DNA of 64,000 nucleotides from a virus (taxonomy: Duplodnaviria > Caudoviricetes): positions 1 to 64,000 of IMG/VR virus record IMGVR_UViG_3300020576_002947; one strand, given 5' to 3'. The notes under the pieces were generated by a model that saw only the letters and a program-made list of their open reading frames with translations, searched no databases and was not told where the DNA came from. Made by a program: the position numbers and the translations under genes. Below, piece after piece: positions 1-26,427 of this stretch (the first letter of the stretch is position 1; each line of letters opens with the position of its first letter).

Positions 1-19
1 AACAGCGTCTTCAACTAAA

Positions 20-40
20 CCCCCCCCCCCCCCCCCCCCC
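20..40 (+). repeat. poly-C tract (21 C) running into the tRNA-Arg acceptor stem
   Basis: Direct reading; the length may be an assembly artefact. Confidence 0.8.
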
Positions 41-112
41 TCATAGCTCAGCGGATAGAGCAAAAATTTTCTAAATTTTAGGCCGTAGGTTCGAGTCCTA
101 CTGAGGGGGCCA
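37..112 (+). tRNA. tRNA-Arg(TCT)
   Basis: Acceptor cccctca/tgagggg, anticodon arm aaaat-tttctaa-atttt, T-loop ttcgagt, encoded CCA. Confidence 0.9.
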
Positions 113-140
113 AAATATCTTATAGTTAATCATCATACAC

Positions 141-162
141 TGCTCAGTAGCTCAGCGGTAGA
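141..162 (+). pseudogene. 5' fragment of interrupted tRNA-Asn
   Basis: tgctcag-ta-gctcagcggtaga; tgctcag is the exact complement of ctgagca at 857-863. Confidence 0.75.
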
Positions 163-205
163 AAGTGTATCCTTAAAACGTAATTCACCTTATTACAGTT
201 TTTGA

Positions 206-282
206 GGGTGTTTGGCATGTCTGGGTATTGCAGGAAACTGTTAATTTCCATTAGCTGAGTTCGATTCTCAGAACACCCTCCA
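206..282 (+). tRNA. tRNA-Asn(GTT), divergent
   Basis: Acceptor gggtgtt/aacaccc, anticodon arm ggaaa-ctgttaa-tttcc, T arm ctgag-ttcgatt-ctcag, U73, CCA. Confidence 0.85.
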
Positions 283-300
283 GTTTTTTATATAGTAATA

Positions 301-792
301 CTATGTTTTAGGCAGTTCTATTAAACCAAAATGTAGCTCTCGGTGACAGTTAGCACATAATAATACACATTTATCTAATTCAATTTTTATAGTCTCCCAT
401 TTTTTAGTAGTATTTGATATTTGAAACTCCTTCGTACTTGGATCTTTATGGTGAAATTCTAAAGCAGCTACACATTTATTGTAACCACATACAATACACT
501 TATTTCCTAAATATTCTAAGCTTTTTATTTTAATTCTAGACCTAAAAGATCTCATAATTTGAGACTTGCTTTTATTATGGTTTTGTTTACTAGTATGATA
601 ATTTTTCATCCCAATACTTTGACAAAGTTTAGAACAGTATATGTTTTTTGAGTGTATTAATTCATCACAAATTTTACATTTTTTTGTTTTAGCTCTTTTA
701 GGATACTTTTTGCCTGTATAACTTGCAGAGCAAGATTTAGAACAAAATTTAGGATTCTTTGTTTCTTTATAACAGTAATGGCATGTGTTCAT
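301..792 (-). CDS. HNH homing endonuclease with N-terminal Cys-rich repeats
   Basis: CIVCG...LEFHH...CVLLCANCHRELH HNH/zinc motif; KFCSKSC/YCSKLC repeats. Confidence 0.9.
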   Translation of the reverse strand: MNTCHYCYKETKNPKFCSKSCSASYTGKKYPKRAKTKKCKICDELIHSKNIYCSKLCQSIGMKNYHTSKQNHNKSKSQIMRSFRSRIKIKSLEYLGNKCIVCGYNKCVAALEFHHKDPSTKEFQISNTTKKWETIKIELDKCVLLCANCHRELHFGLIELPKT

Positions 793-824
793 TAGTACTT
801 TGTTATAGAGTCTAACAAATATTA

Positions 825-867
825 GTTAAGCAGCGGGTCGTAGGTTCGAATCCTGCCTGAGCAGCCA
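825..867 (+). pseudogene. 3' fragment of interrupted tRNA-Asn(GTT)
   Basis: gttaa-gcagc-gggtc-gtagg-ttcgaat-cctgc-ctgagca-g-cca; U1:A72 and G73 as in canonical tRNA-Asn. Confidence 0.8.
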
Positions 868-883
868 AGTTTTAGGTACTCTT

Positions 884-1087
884 ATGGAAAACATACTTGA
901 AGAAAGTCCTATCGGTACACTATTTTTACGGAGTAATTGTATATTAAAACTTACAGCTAGACGCTTTGGTATGGTTACCTTTGTATTAGTTAAAGGTAAG
1001 CCATTTTGGTTTAATGAAAATACCACTTTTACAACCTTCACTCAATTTCATGAGTTTTATCGTTTTGCAGAACTAGTCTGTATCTGA
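884..1087 (+). CDS. hypothetical protein, C-terminal VCI tag
   Basis: ORF ending ELVCI. Confidence 0.75.
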   Translation: MENILEESPIGTLFLRSNCILKLTARRFGMVTFVLVKGKPFWFNENTTFTTFTQFHEFYRFAELVCI

Positions 1088-1088
1088 A

Positions 1089-1403
1089 ATGACTGCTACA
1101 TACGAAGAAATATCAAAAATTTTGAATCTACCTTCTATTGTAACAAGTGCTGATAATCTAAAACATAGCCTAAAAAGAGAAACATTAGAAGATCTAGGCT
1201 ATACAAAAGTAGATTCATCAAACTTAGAATGTTGTAAAGGACGGTATGTTCTGTACACTTATAGTTGGACAGAGCTAGTATTTGTAGAAGAAATTTGTGG
1301 GGATAACTTAAGGGTACATACTATAAAAAGAGATAAAGATACCTACTACACCACTCGTGCAAGTCATATCTTTCTTATAACCCAAGACAGAGTTTGTATC
1401 TAA
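1089..1403 (+). CDS. hypothetical protein (paralog of 1425-1742), VCI tag
   Basis: Shared YEEI..L.LP.I..AD and SWTELV; ends DRVCI. Confidence 0.85.
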   Translation: MTATYEEISKILNLPSIVTSADNLKHSLKRETLEDLGYTKVDSSNLECCKGRYVLYTYSWTELVFVEEICGDNLRVHTIKRDKDTYYTTRASHIFLITQDRVCI

Positions 1404-1424
1404 TAATGTTCTTACAGGCATAGA

Positions 1425-1742
1425 ATGGACCTTAGTTACGAAGAGATTGTAGAATCACTAAAACTTCCTGATATTATTATAGATGCAGATAAAAATATGA
1501 GGCGTATATCCAGAAAAGATCTAATAAATCTTGGATGTGTGCCGATATCGGAAGACCAATTAGATCATTATATAGATCAATATATTATATTCTCTAGTTC
1601 TTGGACTGAACTTGTAAAGCTACAAGGCTATAAGAAAGACAAATCATTCTATTTTTATAGATTAAGAAAAAACATTGCTGATCTATACGCATTCGGATAT
1701 AGTAGCATCTATTCTCTTCCAAAAGACCTAGTATGTATTTAA
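1425..1742 (+). CDS. hypothetical protein (paralog of 1089-1403), VCI tag
   Basis: Paralogy with previous ORF; ends DLVCI. Confidence 0.85.
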   Translation: MDLSYEEIVESLKLPDIIIDADKNMRRISRKDLINLGCVPISEDQLDHYIDQYIIFSSSWTELVKLQGYKKDKSFYFYRLRKNIADLYAFGYSSIYSLPKDLVCI

Positions 1743-1752
1743 CCAAGAAAAC

Positions 1753-1974
1753 ATGACACCTGAACAATGGGACCAACTAAAACCTGGAGATATAGTACGA
1801 AGAACAGATCCTAGAAACCCATCTTCGTACAGAGTTATGGAGGTTAGAGCTTTAAAGAAAACTATAGATTTGTCCCCTGACCTAGGTAAGGAGCATCGAC
1901 TATATCTTGGATGGCAAGGCTCTAAGGATTACTGTCATTTATACGAATTTGAGCACAGAATAGTCTGTATCTAA
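1753..1974 (+). CDS. small MT..LKxGD family protein, VCI tag
   Basis: MTPEQWDQLKPGDIV start; ends RIVCI. Confidence 0.85.
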   Translation: MTPEQWDQLKPGDIVRRTDPRNPSSYRVMEVRALKKTIDLSPDLGKEHRLYLGWQGSKDYCHLYEFEHRIVCI

Positions 1975-1984
1975 AAACAATTTT

Positions 1985-2070
1985 GCCAGGGTATGCCGTT
2001 AAGGAGACGGTTCGGTCTGTAAAACCGACGCTGAAAGGCTCGCCGGGATCGTTACCCGGACTTGGCACCA
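1985..2070 (+). tRNA. tRNA-Tyr(GTA)
   Basis: Anticodon arm tcggt-ctgtaaa-accga, long variable arm, ACCA end. Confidence 0.88.
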
Positions 2071-2080
2071 GAATTCTCAC

Positions 2081-2560
2081 ATGAAAAAACTAGTTATCTT
2101 CCTTGATATAGATGGAGTTCTTAATTGTCGTAAGACCATCTGTAAAAGTAGTTTATGTATTGATAAAGAACTACTATCCAATTACGAGACCTTTATTACT
2201 GAAATTGCAAAGCGCTTTACAGTTTTTGTTGTCCTTTGCAGTAGCTGGAGAAACTCTACAGAACATTTAACTTTCTTAGAAAGCTATGATGTTTGGTGTG
2301 ATGATATGACTTCTAGATTTAGACTATCAGGAACAAGATCCTTAGAAATCTTAGACTATTTGGTTGATCATCCTGATATCGATCCTAAGTATTGTATCAT
2401 TTTGGATGATATGGTAACACAAGAAGCCATCCTAAATTGGGACGAAGACTTAAAGAAAAAGGGTGTACAAAGTATTCCCTTAAACTATGATACTGGCTTT
2501 GATACAAATGCTCTGAACTATGCTAAAGAACTTTTAAAGAACTTACCACAGGAAGACTAG
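2081..2560 (+). CDS. HAD-family phosphatase (Swiss-Army-Knife RNA-repair HAD type)
   Basis: FLDIDGVLN, SSWR, R..EI..YL and ILDD motifs. Confidence 0.85.
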   Translation: MKKLVIFLDIDGVLNCRKTICKSSLCIDKELLSNYETFITEIAKRFTVFVVLCSSWRNSTEHLTFLESYDVWCDDMTSRFRLSGTRSLEILDYLVDHPDIDPKYCIILDDMVTQEAILNWDEDLKKKGVQSIPLNYDTGFDTNALNYAKELLKNLPQED

Positions 2561-2567
2561 TAGTAAC

Positions 2568-2927
2568 GTGAGCATAGAAGAAAATTCTCTTTTATTAGAT
2601 GCTATTGTTAAAGATCTGTATGAATGTAGTTTTCCTATACAACCTAAAGATGGATTTACAGATGAATGGTCTAAGGGTTGGATAGCATTCTTAACAAAAA
2701 GAGGTTTTGTCCTGCTAAAGCAAGGAGCGAAGGCTGATACAGGAGACACTTGTGTTATACTTCGATCTTATCCATTTGTAGGAGTTCAGGTAGGAACTAT
2801 AAGTGGAAACAGAGACAATATATACACAATCTATCATCAAGGTATGAGAATGAAAATTCATTGGTGGCTAAATGATACTTCTATAATACTTATTTATAAA
2901 GGAATTCAAGAAGTAGTATGCGTATAA
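2568..2927 (+). CDS. hypothetical protein, paralog family 2, VCV tag
   Basis: W..FL...GFV...C..L.S.PF.G.Q.G shared with the next two ORFs; ends EVVCV. Confidence 0.8.
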   Translation: MSIEENSLLLDAIVKDLYECSFPIQPKDGFTDEWSKGWIAFLTKRGFVLLKQGAKADTGDTCVILRSYPFVGVQVGTISGNRDNIYTIYHQGMRMKIHWWLNDTSIILIYKGIQEVVCV

Positions 2928-3316
2928 CCCAACCTCCTCATAATATAGTAAGAAATACACATGACTATCTAAAACAACTTGTTTACTACAGTAACCAAAC
3001 AAATCTGTCTCTTCATCCAGATGATTGTGGTGAGGATTGGATAAAAAGCTGGGAATCTTATATATATTCCCTAGGTTTTGTTAAAATTTTAGATGACAAA
3101 GAAGCAAACCATAATGACATATGTATTACTCTAGTCACAAGACCATTTGTGGGTATTCAGATTGGAGTAGTAAGCTGTATTGAGAAAGAAATAGGTGTAC
3201 TAGTATACTTACTTGAGGGTGAGATTTTGAGTAAGAGCAGAGCTTTTATATGGTACTCTAATGCAAACATAGATCTTGTCTATATCCTAAAAGATGCAAA
3301 CAGAGTGTGTATATGA
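2918..3316 (+). CDS. hypothetical protein, paralog family 2, VCI tag
   Basis: Paralogy; ends NRVCI. Confidence 0.8.
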   Translation: MRITQPPHNIVRNTHDYLKQLVYYSNQTNLSLHPDDCGEDWIKSWESYIYSLGFVKILDDKEANHNDICITLVTRPFVGIQIGVVSCIEKEIGVLVYLLEGEILSKSRAFIWYSNANIDLVYILKDANRVCI

Positions 3317-3693
3317 ATGAATTAGGTTCCTATATTGAAAATTATAACTATAACAGTTTAATTAAATGTGTCACCTCTTTCCAAGAAAACCACCCAGTCC
3401 CAAGTAACTTAGATATTCCAAACAATACATGGGATGTCTTTCTTAGAAGTATTGGATTTATTAAAGTTATAGATGAATCTGATACTCTTAATTTACCGTG
3501 TATCATATTACGAAGCCGTCCTAATGATCATGGTGTATTGATTGGTAAGGTTACAGAACAAATCTTTCCTACTCTTATTAGGACCAGTATTTGTCATAGA
3601 AGTGATGGTTATGTACATGAAATGGTATGGAATGTATCATTCGTGCATGATGTATACCATGTTCTAGACACTCAAGCTTTGCCTTGTATCTAG
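3313..3693 (+). CDS. hypothetical protein, paralog family 2, variant tag PCI
   Basis: ATGA overlap start; paralogy; ends LPCI. Confidence 0.8.
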   Translation: MNELGSYIENYNYNSLIKCVTSFQENHPVPSNLDIPNNTWDVFLRSIGFIKVIDESDTLNLPCIILRSRPNDHGVLIGKVTEQIFPTLIRTSICHRSDGYVHEMVWNVSFVHDVYHVLDTQALPCI

Positions 3694-3739
3694 AGAGCAA
3701 AAAAGATTTTTTAATTAGAAAAAAGGGAAAACCAAAAAA

Positions 3740-4803
3740 CCTCAAGCAATTGAGGGCTCGCGCTCTAGTGGTGGGAGAGCAGGTCTACCCAAATTAAAAA
3801 GATTGTGATAAGAAGGCACACCTGGAAAGGTTCCTATCACAGTCAAAAGCTTTTCGGAACACAGGGTAACCTGGTAATGTTAAGCAGATCCGCAAGGACT
3901 TGGTTTGAAAATTACCAAATAGAGATGTGAATGCCTAAACACACTCTACAACAATTTCTGTAAGTTTTGAGCAGGTCTCAAAATAACCAAAGGTAGCCGG
4001 ATGAACTTCTCGGCTGTAATAAGCTCAAGGGGCTTCCTACTTACAAAATTTGTTCCTTTCGGGGGACAAACGGGGGCATGACCTCGAAGATTAGCTGTGG
4101 TAACACAGTGAAAGGGTACCAATCCTCGTTGGTATCGTCCATAGCAATATGGAACACTCATGCAATGGCAAGACTCACAGACAAAATCTGTGCTTTCATA
4201 CTAATGGAAGAAAGCTGCTAGAGAAAGTTTTCAGAAAACCTGTTCCCAGGACTGATGAGAATAATCCCGAACAGTAGGTCTTAAGTCAGAGTTAACAGTG
4301 CAAGTGTCGAAAGCAAGTGCTGGTAACTAGTTGGATATGCCAAATCTATAAGGATAAACCCCCTTGTAGGTGCAACAGATTTAACGGCTGGGCCCGAAGC
4401 CTGGTAGGTCTTAGTGGTGGATTTTGGTTTTCAAAAGAAACTGAAACATCTGGCACCGCGCTAAGATGAGGATATGGTACACATGACAATGTTCAGTTCG
4501 ACTCTGAAAAAAGCATAAGTACGGTGCCTGGCATGAAGAAAACCTTCCTTAGTCCTTGTAACATCAGGACAGCTAAAGCTCGCAAAGCAATAGCCAAGTA
4601 AAGGGATTCACGATCTGGATTTGCTCTCTAGGTCAGGATGAAGATTACTTAACACTTCATGTCAAAAAACTGGAATGCCAACCAATGAAAAATAGGTGGG
4701 AGGTACCCTGTACTACTCTGAAAGGAGTAGTGGATACGATAGATAAGCTGTAAGAAAGCGTACGTCTGTCTAAAGCAGGGCATCAAGGAAAATCTAAGCC
4801 TTG
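3740..4803 (+). ncRNA. large highly structured ncRNA, GOLLD-like
   Basis: >1 kb with no credible ORF, GC-richer than flanks, many GNRA/UUCG hairpins (3740-3755, 4049-4070, 4711-4732), in a tRNA region; 3' part resembles the GOLLD 3' domain as I recall it; boundaries approximate. Confidence 0.65.
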
Positions 4804-4865
4804 TGTTTTTCTTCTCTTTATTTATTTAGTTAGGCTATATTTTTTTTGATTTGCGAAGCAACCTG

Positions 4866-6083
4866 ATGTTACTGAAAGAAACCTCCTCACTAGCACACCC
4901 TTTTAATGTTTGGATCAAAAGATATCTTCTGAATACAGGATACTTTTCCAAAACAGAATCTTATGTTGTAGGCGGCTTTGTTAGAGATCGACTTACTGGT
5001 ACGAAATCTACTAGTAAGGATATTGATATTGTTACTATAGGAAAGCTAGATATCAATCTTATCAAAGAATGCTTCGGGACAGAAAATGTTGCTGTTTTCG
5101 AGAAGTTCGGCACAGCTCAGATTAACATACAAACCGAAGAAGGGTTGATGTATGTAGAGTTTACAACTGCTAGAAAGGAAGTATATACCAAAAACAGTAG
5201 AAAGCCTCTGTGTGAGCCTGCAGGGCTCGAAGAGGACCTACTGAGACGTGACTTTAATATCAATGCTATTGCTTGGGATCTTGTAAATGACAAGCTTCTT
5301 TCTATAGGACCATTGCCTACATTTGATCATATTGATACTTGTGATGATCCTAAGGTTACTTTTTCTGAAGATCCTTTGAGACTTCTTAGGCTAATTAGAT
5401 TCATTCTTAAAACTGGATTACCGCTTAGTAGCAGAATTCAAGAATATCTTAAAACACCTGAATGCAATGCTTTAACAGCAAATCTTACCCCAACCAGAAT
5501 CTTCTGGGAATTACATTCTTGGTGCGAAGCAATTGTTCCTTATAGCTTAGAGAAAAGAGCTTCTTTAGAACTAAGATTAGCTGCATTGAATATTACAGAG
5601 TGGGCTTGTTTCAGAGGAATTGTAAAAAGATTCTTATTAACTGAGTTTAACTATGAAGTAACAGACGATGATGTAACAGTCTATAGTATTCTAGATTATC
5701 TTGATATCAACAATCTTACTAAGCTAGGCTTTAGTAAAACTACTTTAAATCGTTATAGCTTAGTCCTGTCTTTTGAGAAGACTACTGTTCCTTTGGAAAA
5801 AGCAGAAGCCTTAATTAGACTTTCTGATAATAATCTAAATATTACTTTTCTCAATATACTTGGTTATGTACCAGCACAAGTAAGATCTTATGCGGTAAAC
5901 AAACAAACCTCAAACATCGAAGTAGTAAGTATTTACATAGATTGTATATCAGAAATTTTTGGTAAGGAGATTAATTATCATAAAAGTATGATCAAAAAGT
6001 GTATGGTAATACTAGCAATGGGTTATCCAATCAAAGAAGTAAAAGACCTTTTAAAATCTATAGTGGTTAAAGATTTAGTATAA
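4866..6083 (+). CDS. cca: CCA-adding tRNA nucleotidyltransferase (class II)
   Basis: VVGGFVRD, KDIDI, RRDFNINA and EDPLRLLR motifs. Confidence 0.9.
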   Translation: MLLKETSSLAHPFNVWIKRYLLNTGYFSKTESYVVGGFVRDRLTGTKSTSKDIDIVTIGKLDINLIKECFGTENVAVFEKFGTAQINIQTEEGLMYVEFTTARKEVYTKNSRKPLCEPAGLEEDLLRRDFNINAIAWDLVNDKLLSIGPLPTFDHIDTCDDPKVTFSEDPLRLLRLIRFILKTGLPLSSRIQEYLKTPECNALTANLTPTRIFWELHSWCEAIVPYSLEKRASLELRLAALNITEWACFRGIVKRFLLTEFNYEVTDDDVTVYSILDYLDINNLTKLGFSKTTLNRYSLVLSFEKTTVPLEKAEALIRLSDNNLNITFLNILGYVPAQVRSYAVNKQTSNIEVVSIYIDCISEIFGKEINYHKSMIKKCMVILAMGYPIKEVKDLLKSIVVKDLV

Positions 6084-6282: not shown

Positions 6283-7218
6283 ATGGATATGACAAAAAAG
6301 TATAATTCGAGTGAGAGTTTATTAATTCAGACTTATATTGATAAAGGTCCTAACGAAGTTCAAAGTCTATATACCCACTGGTATACCGATTATAAGAATA
6401 AGGAGATATACAACCTTTTCAATAGTACCTCATTGCATGTACCGCTACCACCTACGAAGGATTTAAGAACAAACCTACTGTTATTCCTTAGCATGTCCAA
6501 TACTCAGTCTATTGGTAATACTACTGGGAAAGTTTCAACTATAGGGGGAGGTATAGGAGGCATTATTAACACAGACGGACTGCAGGCAGTAGTCCCAAAT
6601 ATATCTATAAGTTCAAGCAATGTTAACTTAACTAATACAGCAAATACTCAATCGGAGCTTGCTATCTTATGGAATAGTTTTCTAAGTTTTGTGGTTCTCG
6701 TAGGAAACTTTTTACACGAATCACCAAGTTTATCCTTATTTGAAGAAGAAAAGTATTACCCAAATATGACTTGGGCAGGAATAACTTCTTTTCTGTTTCT
6801 GCTAATTTTTATTTTCTCAGCTCTACCCTTTGGACTTGAGAAAGACATCCAACTAGGCGTGGCTCACAGTATTTTTTTACAAATGGTTGTACTCTGTTCG
6901 TCACTTCTCTGCTTTTTCTTCTTCTTTATAGCTGCAGCTCCCAAGAGTAAAGAAGACATCCCAATAGTCAAGAATGAACTAATACCTCTATTGAATAAGA
7001 TAGAACAGACTATTCTATTATCAAAGAAACAAGAATTAATTAAAAAGGTAGATCGAATAAGACAAGAAACTTTAGAAGATTTAAAGAATACTAGTTTTGA
7101 TAAAAGTACTGGAGTAATCTATCTGGAAGACAAATACGGTTTCCATATAAGCTATTTGTCATCTAATTTGGAAGAAATTGCTACTTTCCTCTATAGAGAA
7201 AAATGGGATAAGAAATAA
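6283..7218 (+). CDS. hypothetical membrane protein
   Basis: 311-aa ORF with 2-3 hydrophobic segments. Confidence 0.75.
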   Translation: MDMTKKYNSSESLLIQTYIDKGPNEVQSLYTHWYTDYKNKEIYNLFNSTSLHVPLPPTKDLRTNLLLFLSMSNTQSIGNTTGKVSTIGGGIGGIINTDGLQAVVPNISISSSNVNLTNTANTQSELAILWNSFLSFVVLVGNFLHESPSLSLFEEEKYYPNMTWAGITSFLFLLIFIFSALPFGLEKDIQLGVAHSIFLQMVVLCSSLLCFFFFFIAAAPKSKEDIPIVKNELIPLLNKIEQTILLSKKQELIKKVDRIRQETLEDLKNTSFDKSTGVIYLEDKYGFHISYLSSNLEEIATFLYREKWDKK

Positions 7219-7250
7219 CGTCAGGAGTTCAAATCCCCTAGGCGGCCCCA
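7219..7250 (+). pseudogene. 3' tRNA remnant (T arm plus acceptor strand)
   Basis: aggag-ttcaaat-cccct followed by aggcggc-c-cca; no 5' half. Confidence 0.5.
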
Positions 7251-7285
7251 AGATTTAATATGACCTACCCTTTTGAACTAACACA

Positions 7286-7498: not shown

Positions 7499-7501
7499 AT
7501 T

Positions 7502-7562
7502 TGGGTAGTAGCTTAATTGGTAAAGTGGACAACCTATGCACGTTCGAGTCGTGTCTGCCCTA
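7502..7562 (+). pseudogene. tRNA-like element lacking the anticodon arm
   Basis: gggtag/ctgccc acceptor, D arm gcttaattggtaaag, T arm gcacg-ttcgagt-cgtgt, only ~11 nt between D and T arms. Confidence 0.6.
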
Positions 7563-7587
7563 GTCTCACAAACACCTAGTAAAATGT

Positions 7588-21968: not shown

Positions 21969-21983
21969 TTCTATAGTAGGTAT

Positions 21984-22020
21984 GCTGATGACGTAGGTTC
22001 GAATCCCGCCATCAACTCCA
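21984..22020 (+). pseudogene. collapsed tRNA remnant (acceptor plus T arm only)
   Basis: gctgatg...gtagg-ttcgaat-cccgc-catcaac-t-cca. Confidence 0.55.
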
Positions 22021-22064
22021 AAGTTTATAAAGCAATCCAGGAGAAACGATAATGACTAAGTAAA

Positions 22065-23452: not shown

Positions 23453-23497
23453 GGGCGAGTGGCGGAATTGGTAGCCGCGCTAGATACTTAATCTAGT
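23453..23497 (+). pseudogene. 5' half of a Leu-type tRNA
   Basis: gggcgag-tg-gcggaattggtagccgc D arm, ctaga/tctag stem; no T arm. Confidence 0.65.
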
Positions 23498-23501
23498 CTG
23501 C

Positions 23502-23567
23502 TTTGAGAACATAAGATTTCTATGCCCCAACTGCCATCAACAGACTACAAATTGGGGAAACAAAAAA
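23502..23567 (+). pseudogene. C-terminal remnant of an HNH endonuclease
   Basis: Translates FENIRFLCPNCHQQTTNWGNKK; in-frame stop just upstream and no ATG. Confidence 0.7.
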
Positions 23568-23657
23568 GCCGGGATGGTGGAATTGGTCTACACACTTCGT
23601 TTAGGGCGAAGCGCTCCTGAAAAGAGCTTGAGGGTTCGAGTCCCTCTCTCGGCACCA
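23568..23657 (+). tRNA. tRNA-Leu(TAG)
   Basis: Anticodon arm cttcg-tttaggg-cgaag, long variable arm, ACCA. Confidence 0.9.
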
Positions 23658-23985: not shown

Positions 23986-24057
23986 GCCTTGGTAGCTCAG
24001 GGGTAGAGCAGCCGTCTCTAAAACAGCAGGTCGGGGGTTCAAATCCCCCTCAGGGCG
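23986..24057 (+). tRNA. amber suppressor tRNA (anticodon CTA)
   Basis: Acceptor gccttgg/tcagggc, anticodon arm gccgt-ctctaaa-acagc (one mismatch), T arm ggggg-ttcaaat-ccccc; no encoded CCA. Confidence 0.75.
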
Positions 24058-24247
24058 CTTAATTGTTACTAACTTATTACATTAAAAATAATAGTGGTTT
24101 TAATACCTCTACAGACGAATGCCAATGATCACATACTGGACGAATAGCCTTTTGTAGCTCTATAACGTTTTCCTTATCAGACCACCGTAAATTAACGAGA
24201 CCCTTTTTTCTCGTCATTTACTCCACCAACAAACAAGTCTGATACAC

Positions 24248-25028: not shown

Positions 25029-25081
25029 AACAACAAAAAGACCTGACTTTTAGTAGATACCACTAAGGTACTTCTACTAAA

Positions 25082-25522
25082 ATGAAACCAAATACTATAA
25101 AACGACAAAAAAGAATCCATCAAAAGTCTGTTATCAAAAAGAGAATCTCAGAAGTCTATCGAAGAACTCTTGACGAGAGAACTGCTCTTACGCACAGCCC
25201 TCTTAGAGTAACATATTTTCTTGAGTGCTGGACACCTAGGTTCTGTTATTGTAATGAAGGTAAGAAGAATCTTACTTTCATTCATCATGATATTCAGAGT
25301 TATAGAAGGTATGATAGAGATTGGTGGTATGAGAATGTTGATCACAAGACTAAAAAGAGAGAACAATCAGCATGTGATTACGACTCCGATCCTGGAATAC
25401 TCTCAGATGACTGGATTGTAGGATGGCTATATGGAGAGATTCAAGGTCTTGATGAATATGACGATCTCTCTACTCCAAACCTATTTAAGACCTATAGAAA
25501 GAAGTTTACTAAGAGACTTTAA
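25082..25522 (+). CDS. hypothetical protein
   Basis: ORF. Confidence 0.65.
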   Translation: MKPNTIKRQKRIHQKSVIKKRISEVYRRTLDERTALTHSPLRVTYFLECWTPRFCYCNEGKKNLTFIHHDIQSYRRYDRDWWYENVDHKTKKREQSACDYDSDPGILSDDWIVGWLYGEIQGLDEYDDLSTPNLFKTYRKKFTKRL

Positions 25523-25536
25523 CACAAGAAAAAGAA

Positions 25537-26427
25537 ATGATTGTAGAAAAGAAAGTATCAGCAGTTGATAAAGTTACTAAGTACTTATACAAATCAGATA
25601 AGTACAAACCCTTCTTACTTGAATACACTTATGTTGATAATGGTTCAGGTAAGGATATTATTTGCATGCCTAGTTTTAGCTCTTGTAGCTTAGGATGTAA
25701 ATTCTGTCACTTAACACAAAGAAAAAGTAAAAAATCTGTTGCTGTAGAAGTAGATGATAACTTAGCAGCTATTAAGTATATTCTAAAGGATCAAGGTATA
25801 GGAAGTATTCAAAAAGCTGGTGAAGGTAATCAAACCCTTTTACTATCTTTTATGGGTGCAGGTGAACCTACTCTTAACTCTGATGTACTTATAGAAACTG
25901 CTAAACAGGTAAGAAGAAGGTACTCCCTTTTTTATGACAAAGTTAGATTTGCATTATCCACTATTATCCCGGTCCCTAGACACTTGGATTACATTTCCTC
26001 TGAATTCTTAAGTAATGGACTTGATTTAAAGATACACTACTCTCTTCATTTATGGGATAATGAAACCAAAAGAAATCTAATGCCCCTAGCTCTTCCGACA
26101 GACAAGGCATTAGTTCTATTAAAAGATCTTAGTAAGTTCCATCCTATTGAAGTTCATTACACACCCTTCTCGTCAAACAGTGGGATAGAGGATATTCTCA
26201 AACTAAAGGATTTAGTTGAAACCACTAACTTCAATGTTAAGATCCTTAACTTCTCAGAAAGACCTGATCATTTGATTACACCTAAAATCTCAAGTAAGGA
26301 TTTTTATAATAACTGTATCTCAGAAGGAATACCATCTTCTAGAATTGAATATTATTGTCCTCCAGGTCATGACGTAAATGGCTGCTGCGGGGAGTTTGAG
26401 TTAGACTTTTCCAAATACTGGGATTAA
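25537..26427 (+). CDS. RlmN/Cfr-like radical SAM RNA methyltransferase
   Basis: CSLGCKFC, MGAGEP, SLH, G.DV.GCCG. Confidence 0.85.
   Translation: MIVEKKVSAVDKVTKYLYKSDKYKPFLLEYTYVDNGSGKDIICMPSFSSCSLGCKFCHLTQRKSKKSVAVEVDDNLAAIKYILKDQGIGSIQKAGEGNQTLLLSFMGAGEPTLNSDVLIETAKQVRRRYSLFYDKVRFALSTIIPVPRHLDYISSEFLSNGLDLKIHYSLHLWDNETKRNLMPLALPTDKALVLLKDLSKFHPIEVHYTPFSSNSGIEDILKLKDLVETTNFNVKILNFSERPDHLITPKISSKDFYNNCISEGIPSSRIEYYCPPGHDVNGCCGEFELDFSKYWD

Follow-up and report, generated by a model that had tools for sequence, protein, structure and literature searches.

In an uncultured jumbo phage of ~240 kb, a resident tRNA-Asn(GTT) gene has been broken by a 662-nt insert, which carries an antisense HNH endonuclease ORF and an unrelated tRNA gene with the same anticodon. 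The reading we favour, with moderate confidence, is that a free-standing HNH homing endonuclease has inserted into its own target, a tRNA-Asn gene, together with a rescue tRNA. The phage record is 239,691 nt in length, with 38% G+C and the standard genetic code, and the window analysed here is its first 64 kb (features of the locus are given in Table 1). About 16 tRNA calls are found in the record, along with a CCA-adding enzyme and a GOLLD-like RNA (window nt 4407–4801; 105 bits, below the gathering score of 150). The first 36 nt of the window (poly-C) are an assembly-end artefact. In an independent contig (run X4) and in a sibling phage (L025), the last gene of the genome is joined directly to the tRNA-Arg at nt 36–37, so the record is probably circular.

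Table 1. Coordinates of the split tRNA-Asn gene, its insert and the upstream tRNA-Arg (window numbering).
Feature	Position (nt)	Strand	Remarks
tRNA-Arg(TCT)	37–112	+	upstream of cassette and outside it; inside the exchanged tract
5' remnant of resident tRNA-Asn(GTT)	141–162	+	acceptor 5' strand (U1), D-arm to middle of D-stem 3' strand
Left spacer of insert	163–205	.	43 nt, AT-rich; absent from X3 and L025 alleles
Replacement tRNA	206–282	+	GTT anticodon, G1:C72, U73, encoded CCA, atypical D-loop (G14, U15); ARAGORN; Rfam RF00005, 47.6 bits
HNH endonuclease (predicted)	301–792	-	163 aa, open and intact; PHROG 2255/3106, E 1e-24
Right spacer of insert	793–824	.	32 nt; upstream region of the HNH gene on the minus strand
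3' remnant of resident tRNA-Asn	825–867	+	anticodon GTT, 3' anticodon stem, T-arm, acceptor 3' strand, G73, CCA

The initial annotation of this DNA described two halves of a canonical tRNA-Asn(GTT) with a perfect 7-bp acceptor match, lying about 660 nt apart and lacking some 10 nt, with an antisense HNH gene between them, and each of these points holds. The two acceptor strands (nt 141–147 and 857–863) form seven out of seven Watson-Crick pairs, including U1:A72, and are followed by G73 and CCA at nt 864–867. The 5' piece ends inside the 3' strand of the D-stem and the 3' piece begins with the first anticodon base. The pieces are 662 nt apart and lack exactly 10 nt of tRNA, a stretch that begins where the D-stem ends, takes in the 5' anticodon strand and reaches position 33. 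When these 10 nt were sought inside the insert, the best match had 2–3 mismatches. Head and tail patterns with matching acceptor strands occur in exactly two pairs genome-wide (starting at nt 141 and nt 224706), while no pair was found in 100 dinucleotide-matched simulated genomes. A 24-nt pattern taken from the 5' piece matched 70 metagenome loci and, among the distinct sequences listed from these, all run on into a GTT anticodon and mostly into the same 3' acceptor end, which indicates that both halves are Asn. An origin of the fragments from different tRNAs, one of the refuting outcomes named in the initial annotation, is excluded. The resident 3' half gave no match in viral contigs and genomes, and a scan of the right spacer for sigma-70 promoters scored at chance level. 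Judged from sequence, the resident gene is demonstrably destroyed and its two halves are dead remnants.

Alleles without the cassette were found in two sources. In run X3, from another study, a contig joins nt 162 to nt 827 with at least 56 nt matching on each side; this evidence consists of a single contig of depth 3.3, seen in part. The junction comprises 35 letters: the 10 nt that were predicted to be lacking, then anticodon bases one and two, then a hairpin of 23 nt. This allele has neither the HNH gene nor the nested tRNA. The sibling L025 (SRR25018320) is 96% identical, with 94–97% identity in the flanking genes, and its slot holds a diverged tRNA-Arg (only 78% identical to that of the window) and a third, intact tRNA-Asn with a long variable arm, again without an HNH gene. 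The two phages differ over tRNA-Arg and tRNA-Asn, with crossovers at the conserved tRNA ends. Homologue searches with the flanking genes returned only a 1648-nt sibling contig. The HNH gene is therefore optional at this locus (absent in two alleles, one sequencing run), and three different tRNA-Asn alleles occupy the same slot of near-identical phages, which marks the cassette as a recent insertion. That it is an insertion rather than an intron follows from X3, where the halves are joined with the 10 nt present, and from L025, which lacks the HNH. At the level of allele comparison, the HNH gene and tRNA 206–282 are thus demonstrated to be a real, recent insertion that is absent from relatives. 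The search for related phages with an intact tRNA-Asn, proposed in the initial annotation, was partly successful: L025 has an intact gene of a third type and no HNH, but the resident-type allele of X3 bears the 23-nt interruption. As this was the only copy of the resident allele found without the cassette, no pristine one was seen.

The HNH protein has two N-terminal Cys4 zinc fingers followed by a Zn-binding HNH domain, in which residues C99, C102, H114, H115, C146, N148, C149 and H150 were identified. The eight N-terminal cysteines are invariant in 19 close homologues (alignment A1), as are C99, C102, H114, H115, C146, C149 and H150, and N148 is present in the window protein. Its catalytic and zinc residues are intact, and there is no sign of decay. 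An AlphaFold model (pLDDT 87.5) gave structural matches of which the best are mostly HNH nucleases or domains, albeit weak (Z 4–5); a Pfam search gave no match, and a sequence search of solved structures only a weak match to McrA. About 1,500 homologues were found at E below 1e-15, while no paralogue was found among the other ORFs of the genome. Profile, motif and fold together point to an HNH endonuclease, with a nuclease domain, intact catalytic residues and DNA-binding modules.

For the wider family, 115 loci with HNH homologues were collected and grouped into 84 clusters at 85% identity, of which 73 have a tRNA within 1.5 kb and 59 a directly adjacent one. The family is strongly tied to tRNA-Asn and tRNA-Ile genes. 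With the caveat that the clusters are not phylogenetically independent, tRNA-Asn(GTT) is the adjacent gene in 32 of the 59 clusters against 12.7 expected from within-locus label shuffles (p<1e-4), tRNA-Ile(GAT) in 9 against 4.8 (p=0.02), and one or the other in 40 against 17.1. The adjoining Asn genes are highly diverse in sequence, so that the association looks re-made rather than inherited once. The split layout also recurs. The best full-length homologues (51–55% identity) lie antisense inside or against a split tRNA-Ile(GAT), whose anticodon loop is one base apart from that of GTT, and most have a GAT replacement in the gap. The order 5' piece, HNH, replacement and 3' piece starting from the anticodon is seen in L009, L013–L017 and L021–L022, all Ile(GAT) and all with outer acceptor strands that pair; L023 has a similar layout, and L009 is a sense-strand version with a canonical replacement. 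In all split cases the gene is broken on the left within the D-arm or immediately behind it, and on the right 0–3 nt before the anticodon, as in the window, and the stretch lost every time is the 5' strand of the anticodon stem. Among the Asn-adjacent clusters, the full layout with split gene and replacement was found only in the window.

The insert demonstrably took the place of the 10 nt between D-stem and anticodon of the resident tRNA-Asn; under the favoured reading, it is a homing endonuclease gene that travels with an unrelated tRNA-Asn gene. The enzyme would recognise the anticodon arm of tRNA-Asn DNA and cut or nick it near the 5' strand of the anticodon stem, a position suggested by the lost stretch common to all split cases; that cutting takes place in the anticodon arm of tRNA-Asn is a step of which we are fairly confident. 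First entry of the cassette may have occurred through non-homologous repair of a break in the anticodon stem. During co-infection, an intact allele would then be cut and the cassette copied in by recombination, the remnants and flanks serving as homology arms. Its own genome would be immune, as the site is split and the cargo tRNA retains only the 7-nt anticodon loop, and the cargo would offset the loss of the gene, a role played by splicing in the case of an intron. The initial annotation inferred a selfish cassette that destroys its target tRNA and compensates with a cleavage-resistant isoacceptor. This is supported in part: the insertion and the destroyed gene are borne out, while cutting of the resident allele, resistance of the replacement and compensation are presumed steps.

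Alternatively, the insertion is real but the HNH may be a hitch-hiker that targets something else, be it tRNA-Ile(GAT), a motif common to tRNAs (the case in SegB) or a neighbouring gene; illegitimate recombination, in a tract where phages exchange entire tRNA alleles, would then have produced the split. The true target could indeed differ, as the best homologues split tRNA-Ile(GAT) and the nuclease-domain tree, which is unfinished and mostly without resolution, supports no order of target switching. Exchange at conserved tRNA ends, without any HNH, is what L025 displays across tRNA-Arg and tRNA-Asn, and SegB cuts many tRNA genes by way of a T-loop motif (PMC2330249). Nevertheless, this alternative appears unlikely: the family is enriched beside Asn specifically, under a within-locus control, the deleted stretch and the break points agree across independent phages, and chance alone would not supply a matching anticodon in each case.

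The replacement was originally described as an intact, sequence-unrelated GTT tRNA with U73, and ARAGORN, Rfam and a comparison with the resident halves confirm this. It has little in common with the halves beyond the anticodon loop and T-loop. Its Rfam score is above the cut-off, and its acceptor, anticodon and T stems are fully paired, while the D-arm is not formed in the minimum-energy fold. No close copy was found in viral contigs and genomes, blastn against cultured phages gave short weak matches only, and no donor was found in which this tRNA lies beside the HNH of the window. In bacteria, G73 and the anticodon are the identity determinants for Asn (PMC9976931), and for GatCAB U1:A72 is required and G1:C72 is an antideterminant (PMC1635274). 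The destroyed resident gene had both G73 and U1:A72 while tRNA 206–282 has neither, and so departs from a canonical bacterial tRNA-Asn despite its GTT anticodon. Among the 82 other tRNA-Asn(GTT) collected, U73 occurs in 6, always with G1:C72, which argues that the combination is a recurrent class and not decay; G1:C72 with G73 occurs in 22. Members of the recurrent class were seen at L114, L145, L161, L166, L172 and one more locus. No class II synthetase (PF00152) was found in the phage genome. Because G1:C72 and U73 run against the known Asn identity rules, compensation by this tRNA is uncertain, and the chances are about even that it makes good the loss of the resident gene; this is the weakest step of the favoured reading.

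Phage tRNA genes are often dispensable, and a rescue may for this reason be unneeded. It is conceivable, then, that the cassette homes but that its cargo is not a like-for-like rescue, being instead a decoy, or an uncharged or mis-charged tRNA, deployed against tRNA-cleaving defences of the host, with the resident gene dispensable. We rank this next and likewise regard it as doubtful. The conflict with the identity rules (PMC9976931, PMC1635274), the recurrence of U73 exclusively with G1:C72 and the missing D-arm in the minimum-energy fold all fit such a role, and phage tRNAs are known to counter tRNA-cleaving defences (PMC10264068, PMC11555353, PMC13096335). Against it stand the fully paired stems, the encoded CCA and the Rfam score, together with the 22 genes with G1:C72 and G73, which make non-GatCAB types common.

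The 23-nt hairpin in the anticodon of the X3 allele may represent a very small intron, a scar or a variant that confers resistance. Placing this insert in the 37/38 register, which would give a GTG anticodon on an Asn body, is less likely, given that other Asn genes have inserts after position 35. Five to six independent tRNA-Asn genes near HNHs of the family carry anticodon inserts of ~50–200 nt, most of them after position 35 (a count made with no control set), and inserts at an X3-like position would fit a contested site. Such inserts were noted at L111, L119, L124/L127, L147, L163, L165 and probably L184 (Lak-B1); some resemble group I introns or have a tRNA-like arm nested within them, and the B-Lak 'tRNA-Tyr(GTA) intron' may be an interrupted tRNA-Asn of this kind. 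In seven marine or freshwater contigs (L030, L038, L043, L065, L068, L080 and L081) the 5' part of a resident-type tRNA-Asn is duplicated just upstream of an intact gene, with the anticodon of the duplicate replaced by a small GC-rich hairpin.

It might be supposed from the X3 allele that the cassette elaborates an older anticodon-loop insert, such that HNH and tRNA were added to an X3-like interruption after position 35 in a gene that was already split or spliced, and the 5' stem was lost. The 23-nt insert shares an 8-nt word with window nt 809–816, at nearly the same distance from the junction; inserts at the anticodon site are common in tRNA-Asn genes, and short enigmatic tRNA introns are described in Lak phages (10.1101/356790). 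This history is improbable, as the word turns up 20 times on the two strands of the genome, the remainder of the 23 nt gives no alignment, the likeness was noticed post hoc, and the 3' piece in the window keeps a complete GTT, just as GAT is kept in the Ile cases. Least of all, and very improbably, could the insert be an intron or the halves be joined in trans to a mature tRNA: although two further tRNA genes of this genome contain true group I introns, and there are ORFs that we take to be RNA-ligase-like, splicing cannot restore the resident gene when the insert lacks ten exon bases and has its HNH gene in antisense; the phage genome yielded no RtcB, and no group I match or catalytic core was found in window nt 1–6000 with a search that detected the genome's tRNA-Leu intron as a control. 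The other refuting outcome of the initial annotation, splicing that restores the tRNA, is very improbable on sequence grounds. No RNA dataset is listed among the matching sequencing runs, and run X6, labelled RNA-Seq but probably DNA, has no listed piece across the insert. The tRNA genes with anticodon-loop introns elsewhere in the genome (G000) lie at nt 217256–217565 and 223141–223958, the latter intron being of group I (70.9 bits) with a 184-aa ORF.

SegB of T4/T6, named as precedent in the initial annotation, is a free-standing GIY-YIG homing endonuclease of the phage tRNA cluster; it recognises a T-loop motif, cuts the 3' ends of many tRNA genes, with a preferred site in T2L tRNA-Asn, and by cutting tRNA gene DNA drives the inheritance of neighbouring tRNA genes (PMC2330249; PMC13096335). 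The precedent stands in so far as here too an endonuclease gene stands free within a tRNA region of a phage and is missing from relatives, but it is otherwise only an analogy, as the nuclease here is of the HNH class and the GIY-YIG domain, T-loop motif and 3'-end cuts belong to SegB. Unlike SegB, which lies between intact tRNA genes, the window HNH is found within the tRNA gene that was destroyed; the damage affects the anticodon stem, and the cargo is a tRNA with the same anticodon. Phage T5 likewise has site-specific endonuclease genes, F-TflI/II/IV, within its tRNA arrays (Akulenko 2004, as cited in PMC2330249), and the citing text mentions no tRNA gene that is both split and replaced. HNH genes within tRNA clusters are already on record, with a suggested role in the spread of tRNA genes (PMC6409571).

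Free-standing homing with a resistant neighbouring allele is established, as are insertions of homing endonuclease genes (HEGs) that split genes (PMC2988022, PMC2330249). In intronless and collaborative homing (SegF, SegG, Aeh1 mobE in nrdA, T4 mobA), the endonuclease is accompanied by a form of its target that resists cutting, as would be the case in the window, and an HEG insertion can split the host gene (PMC2988022, PMC10448857). In those systems the fragments of a split gene retain their function, or else resistance lies in a homologous variant or an intron; the window, by contrast, has two dead fragments and, as stand-in, an entire gene of unrelated sequence. A break-and-complement logic, which the cassette may share, is found in tRNA-dependent lysogeny (Guerrero-Bustamante and Hatfull 2024, PMC10865867), where a whole prophage uses a tyrosine integrase to enter a host gene; the window has instead a 662-nt cassette in a phage gene with a 10-nt deletion, and no integrase or att site was seen in the insert, whose content is the HNH ORF and one tRNA only. 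The tRNA 'introns' of Lak megaphages (Devoto et al., 10.1101/356790) are also inserts in phage tRNA genes, one of them with a nested tRNA, but they are described as introns, with no endonuclease in the text and no exon loss reported. By analogy, the cassette would join intronless homing, as by SegB, SegF or SegG, to the breaking and complementing of a tRNA gene, as in tRNA-dependent lysogeny. The literature searched, which is thin on subscription journals, gave no account of a cassette that splits a tRNA gene and brings a replacement.

Homing endonucleases normally spare the target gene, either because they are housed in an intron or intein or because they lie next to it. The window element would occupy its target and supply a substitute, a natural parallel to engineered drives, which cut a gene while delivering a recoded rescue version. 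It could equally prove right or wrong that there is a general class of minimal 'home-and-rescue' elements, in which an endonuclease gene lodges in the very tRNA gene that it targets and destroys it, with no intron involved and with an unrelated isoacceptor as rescue cargo. If there is, repeated rounds would explain the many unrelated same-isotype copies, orphan halves and anticodon-loop inserts in phage tRNA arrays, and also phage tRNAs with non-standard identity bases or architecture. This would provide a selfish-DNA account of phage tRNA diversity and turnover, a long-open question for which the usual answers are codon usage or anti-defence. The recurring U73/G1:C72 class of tRNA-Asn is also brought to attention. 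The idea is testable in cultured phages, as HNH homologues lie beside tRNA-Ile or tRNA-Asn in Felix O1, CR3, XbC2 and Hafnia phage SarahDanielle. In L179 (Felix O1 25030–25584), L189 and L190, all from cultured phages, the stop codon of the HNH gene lies within or directly against a tRNA-Ile(GAT) or tRNA-Asn(GTT) gene; in Felix O1 the HNH is ORF44 and its overlap is with tRNA-Ile.

A second cassette of the same layout is present in the same genome at nt 224706–225420 (L027:707–1420), where a split gene of tRNA-Gln type encloses an intact tRNA-Gln(TTG) and an unrelated antisense HNH. Here the replacement has the same acceptor stem as the split gene, and the HNH ORF ends inside the antisense strand of the replacement. 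At nt 237258–237898 (L026:759–1400) an antisense HNH-like ORF interrupts a tRNA, and the gap contains no replacement; beside it is a Y RNA-like gene (L026:618–726), which follows downstream of a TROVE/Ro60-like gene. What looked like a permuted tRNA-Asn at nt 237117–237225 was rejected, as it is a Y RNA-like gene by a TROVE/Ro60-like ORF (YrlA, 42.6 bits, below gathering). Two further loci are decayed: window nt 23453–23657 has a Leu-type 5' half, an HNH C-terminal remnant and an intact tRNA-Leu(TAG), and genome nt 222375–222800 a Val-like relic, a tRNA-Val(TAC) and an antisense HNH remnant. Orphan tRNA 3' ends and a tRNA-like relic were seen at window nt 7218–7251, 21975–22021 and 7500–7565, with no matching 5' half found. 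Window nt 23986–24058 is a tRNA with a CTA anticodon, yet TAG serves as stop in 29 of 144 long ORFs.

The replacement in several of the Ile cassettes is a non-cloverleaf tRNA-Ile(GAT) (L013:3907–3993(-), L015, L019, L021, L023 and L191–L202). In this form the anticodon arm is nested in a 3-bp helix resembling a D-stem, and a D-loop motif comes after it. It is missed by ARAGORN, and 11 of 12 further loci have no nearby HNH. In 13 sequences, 99.6% of the cells are paired, and 11 of the 19 pairs show compensatory change.
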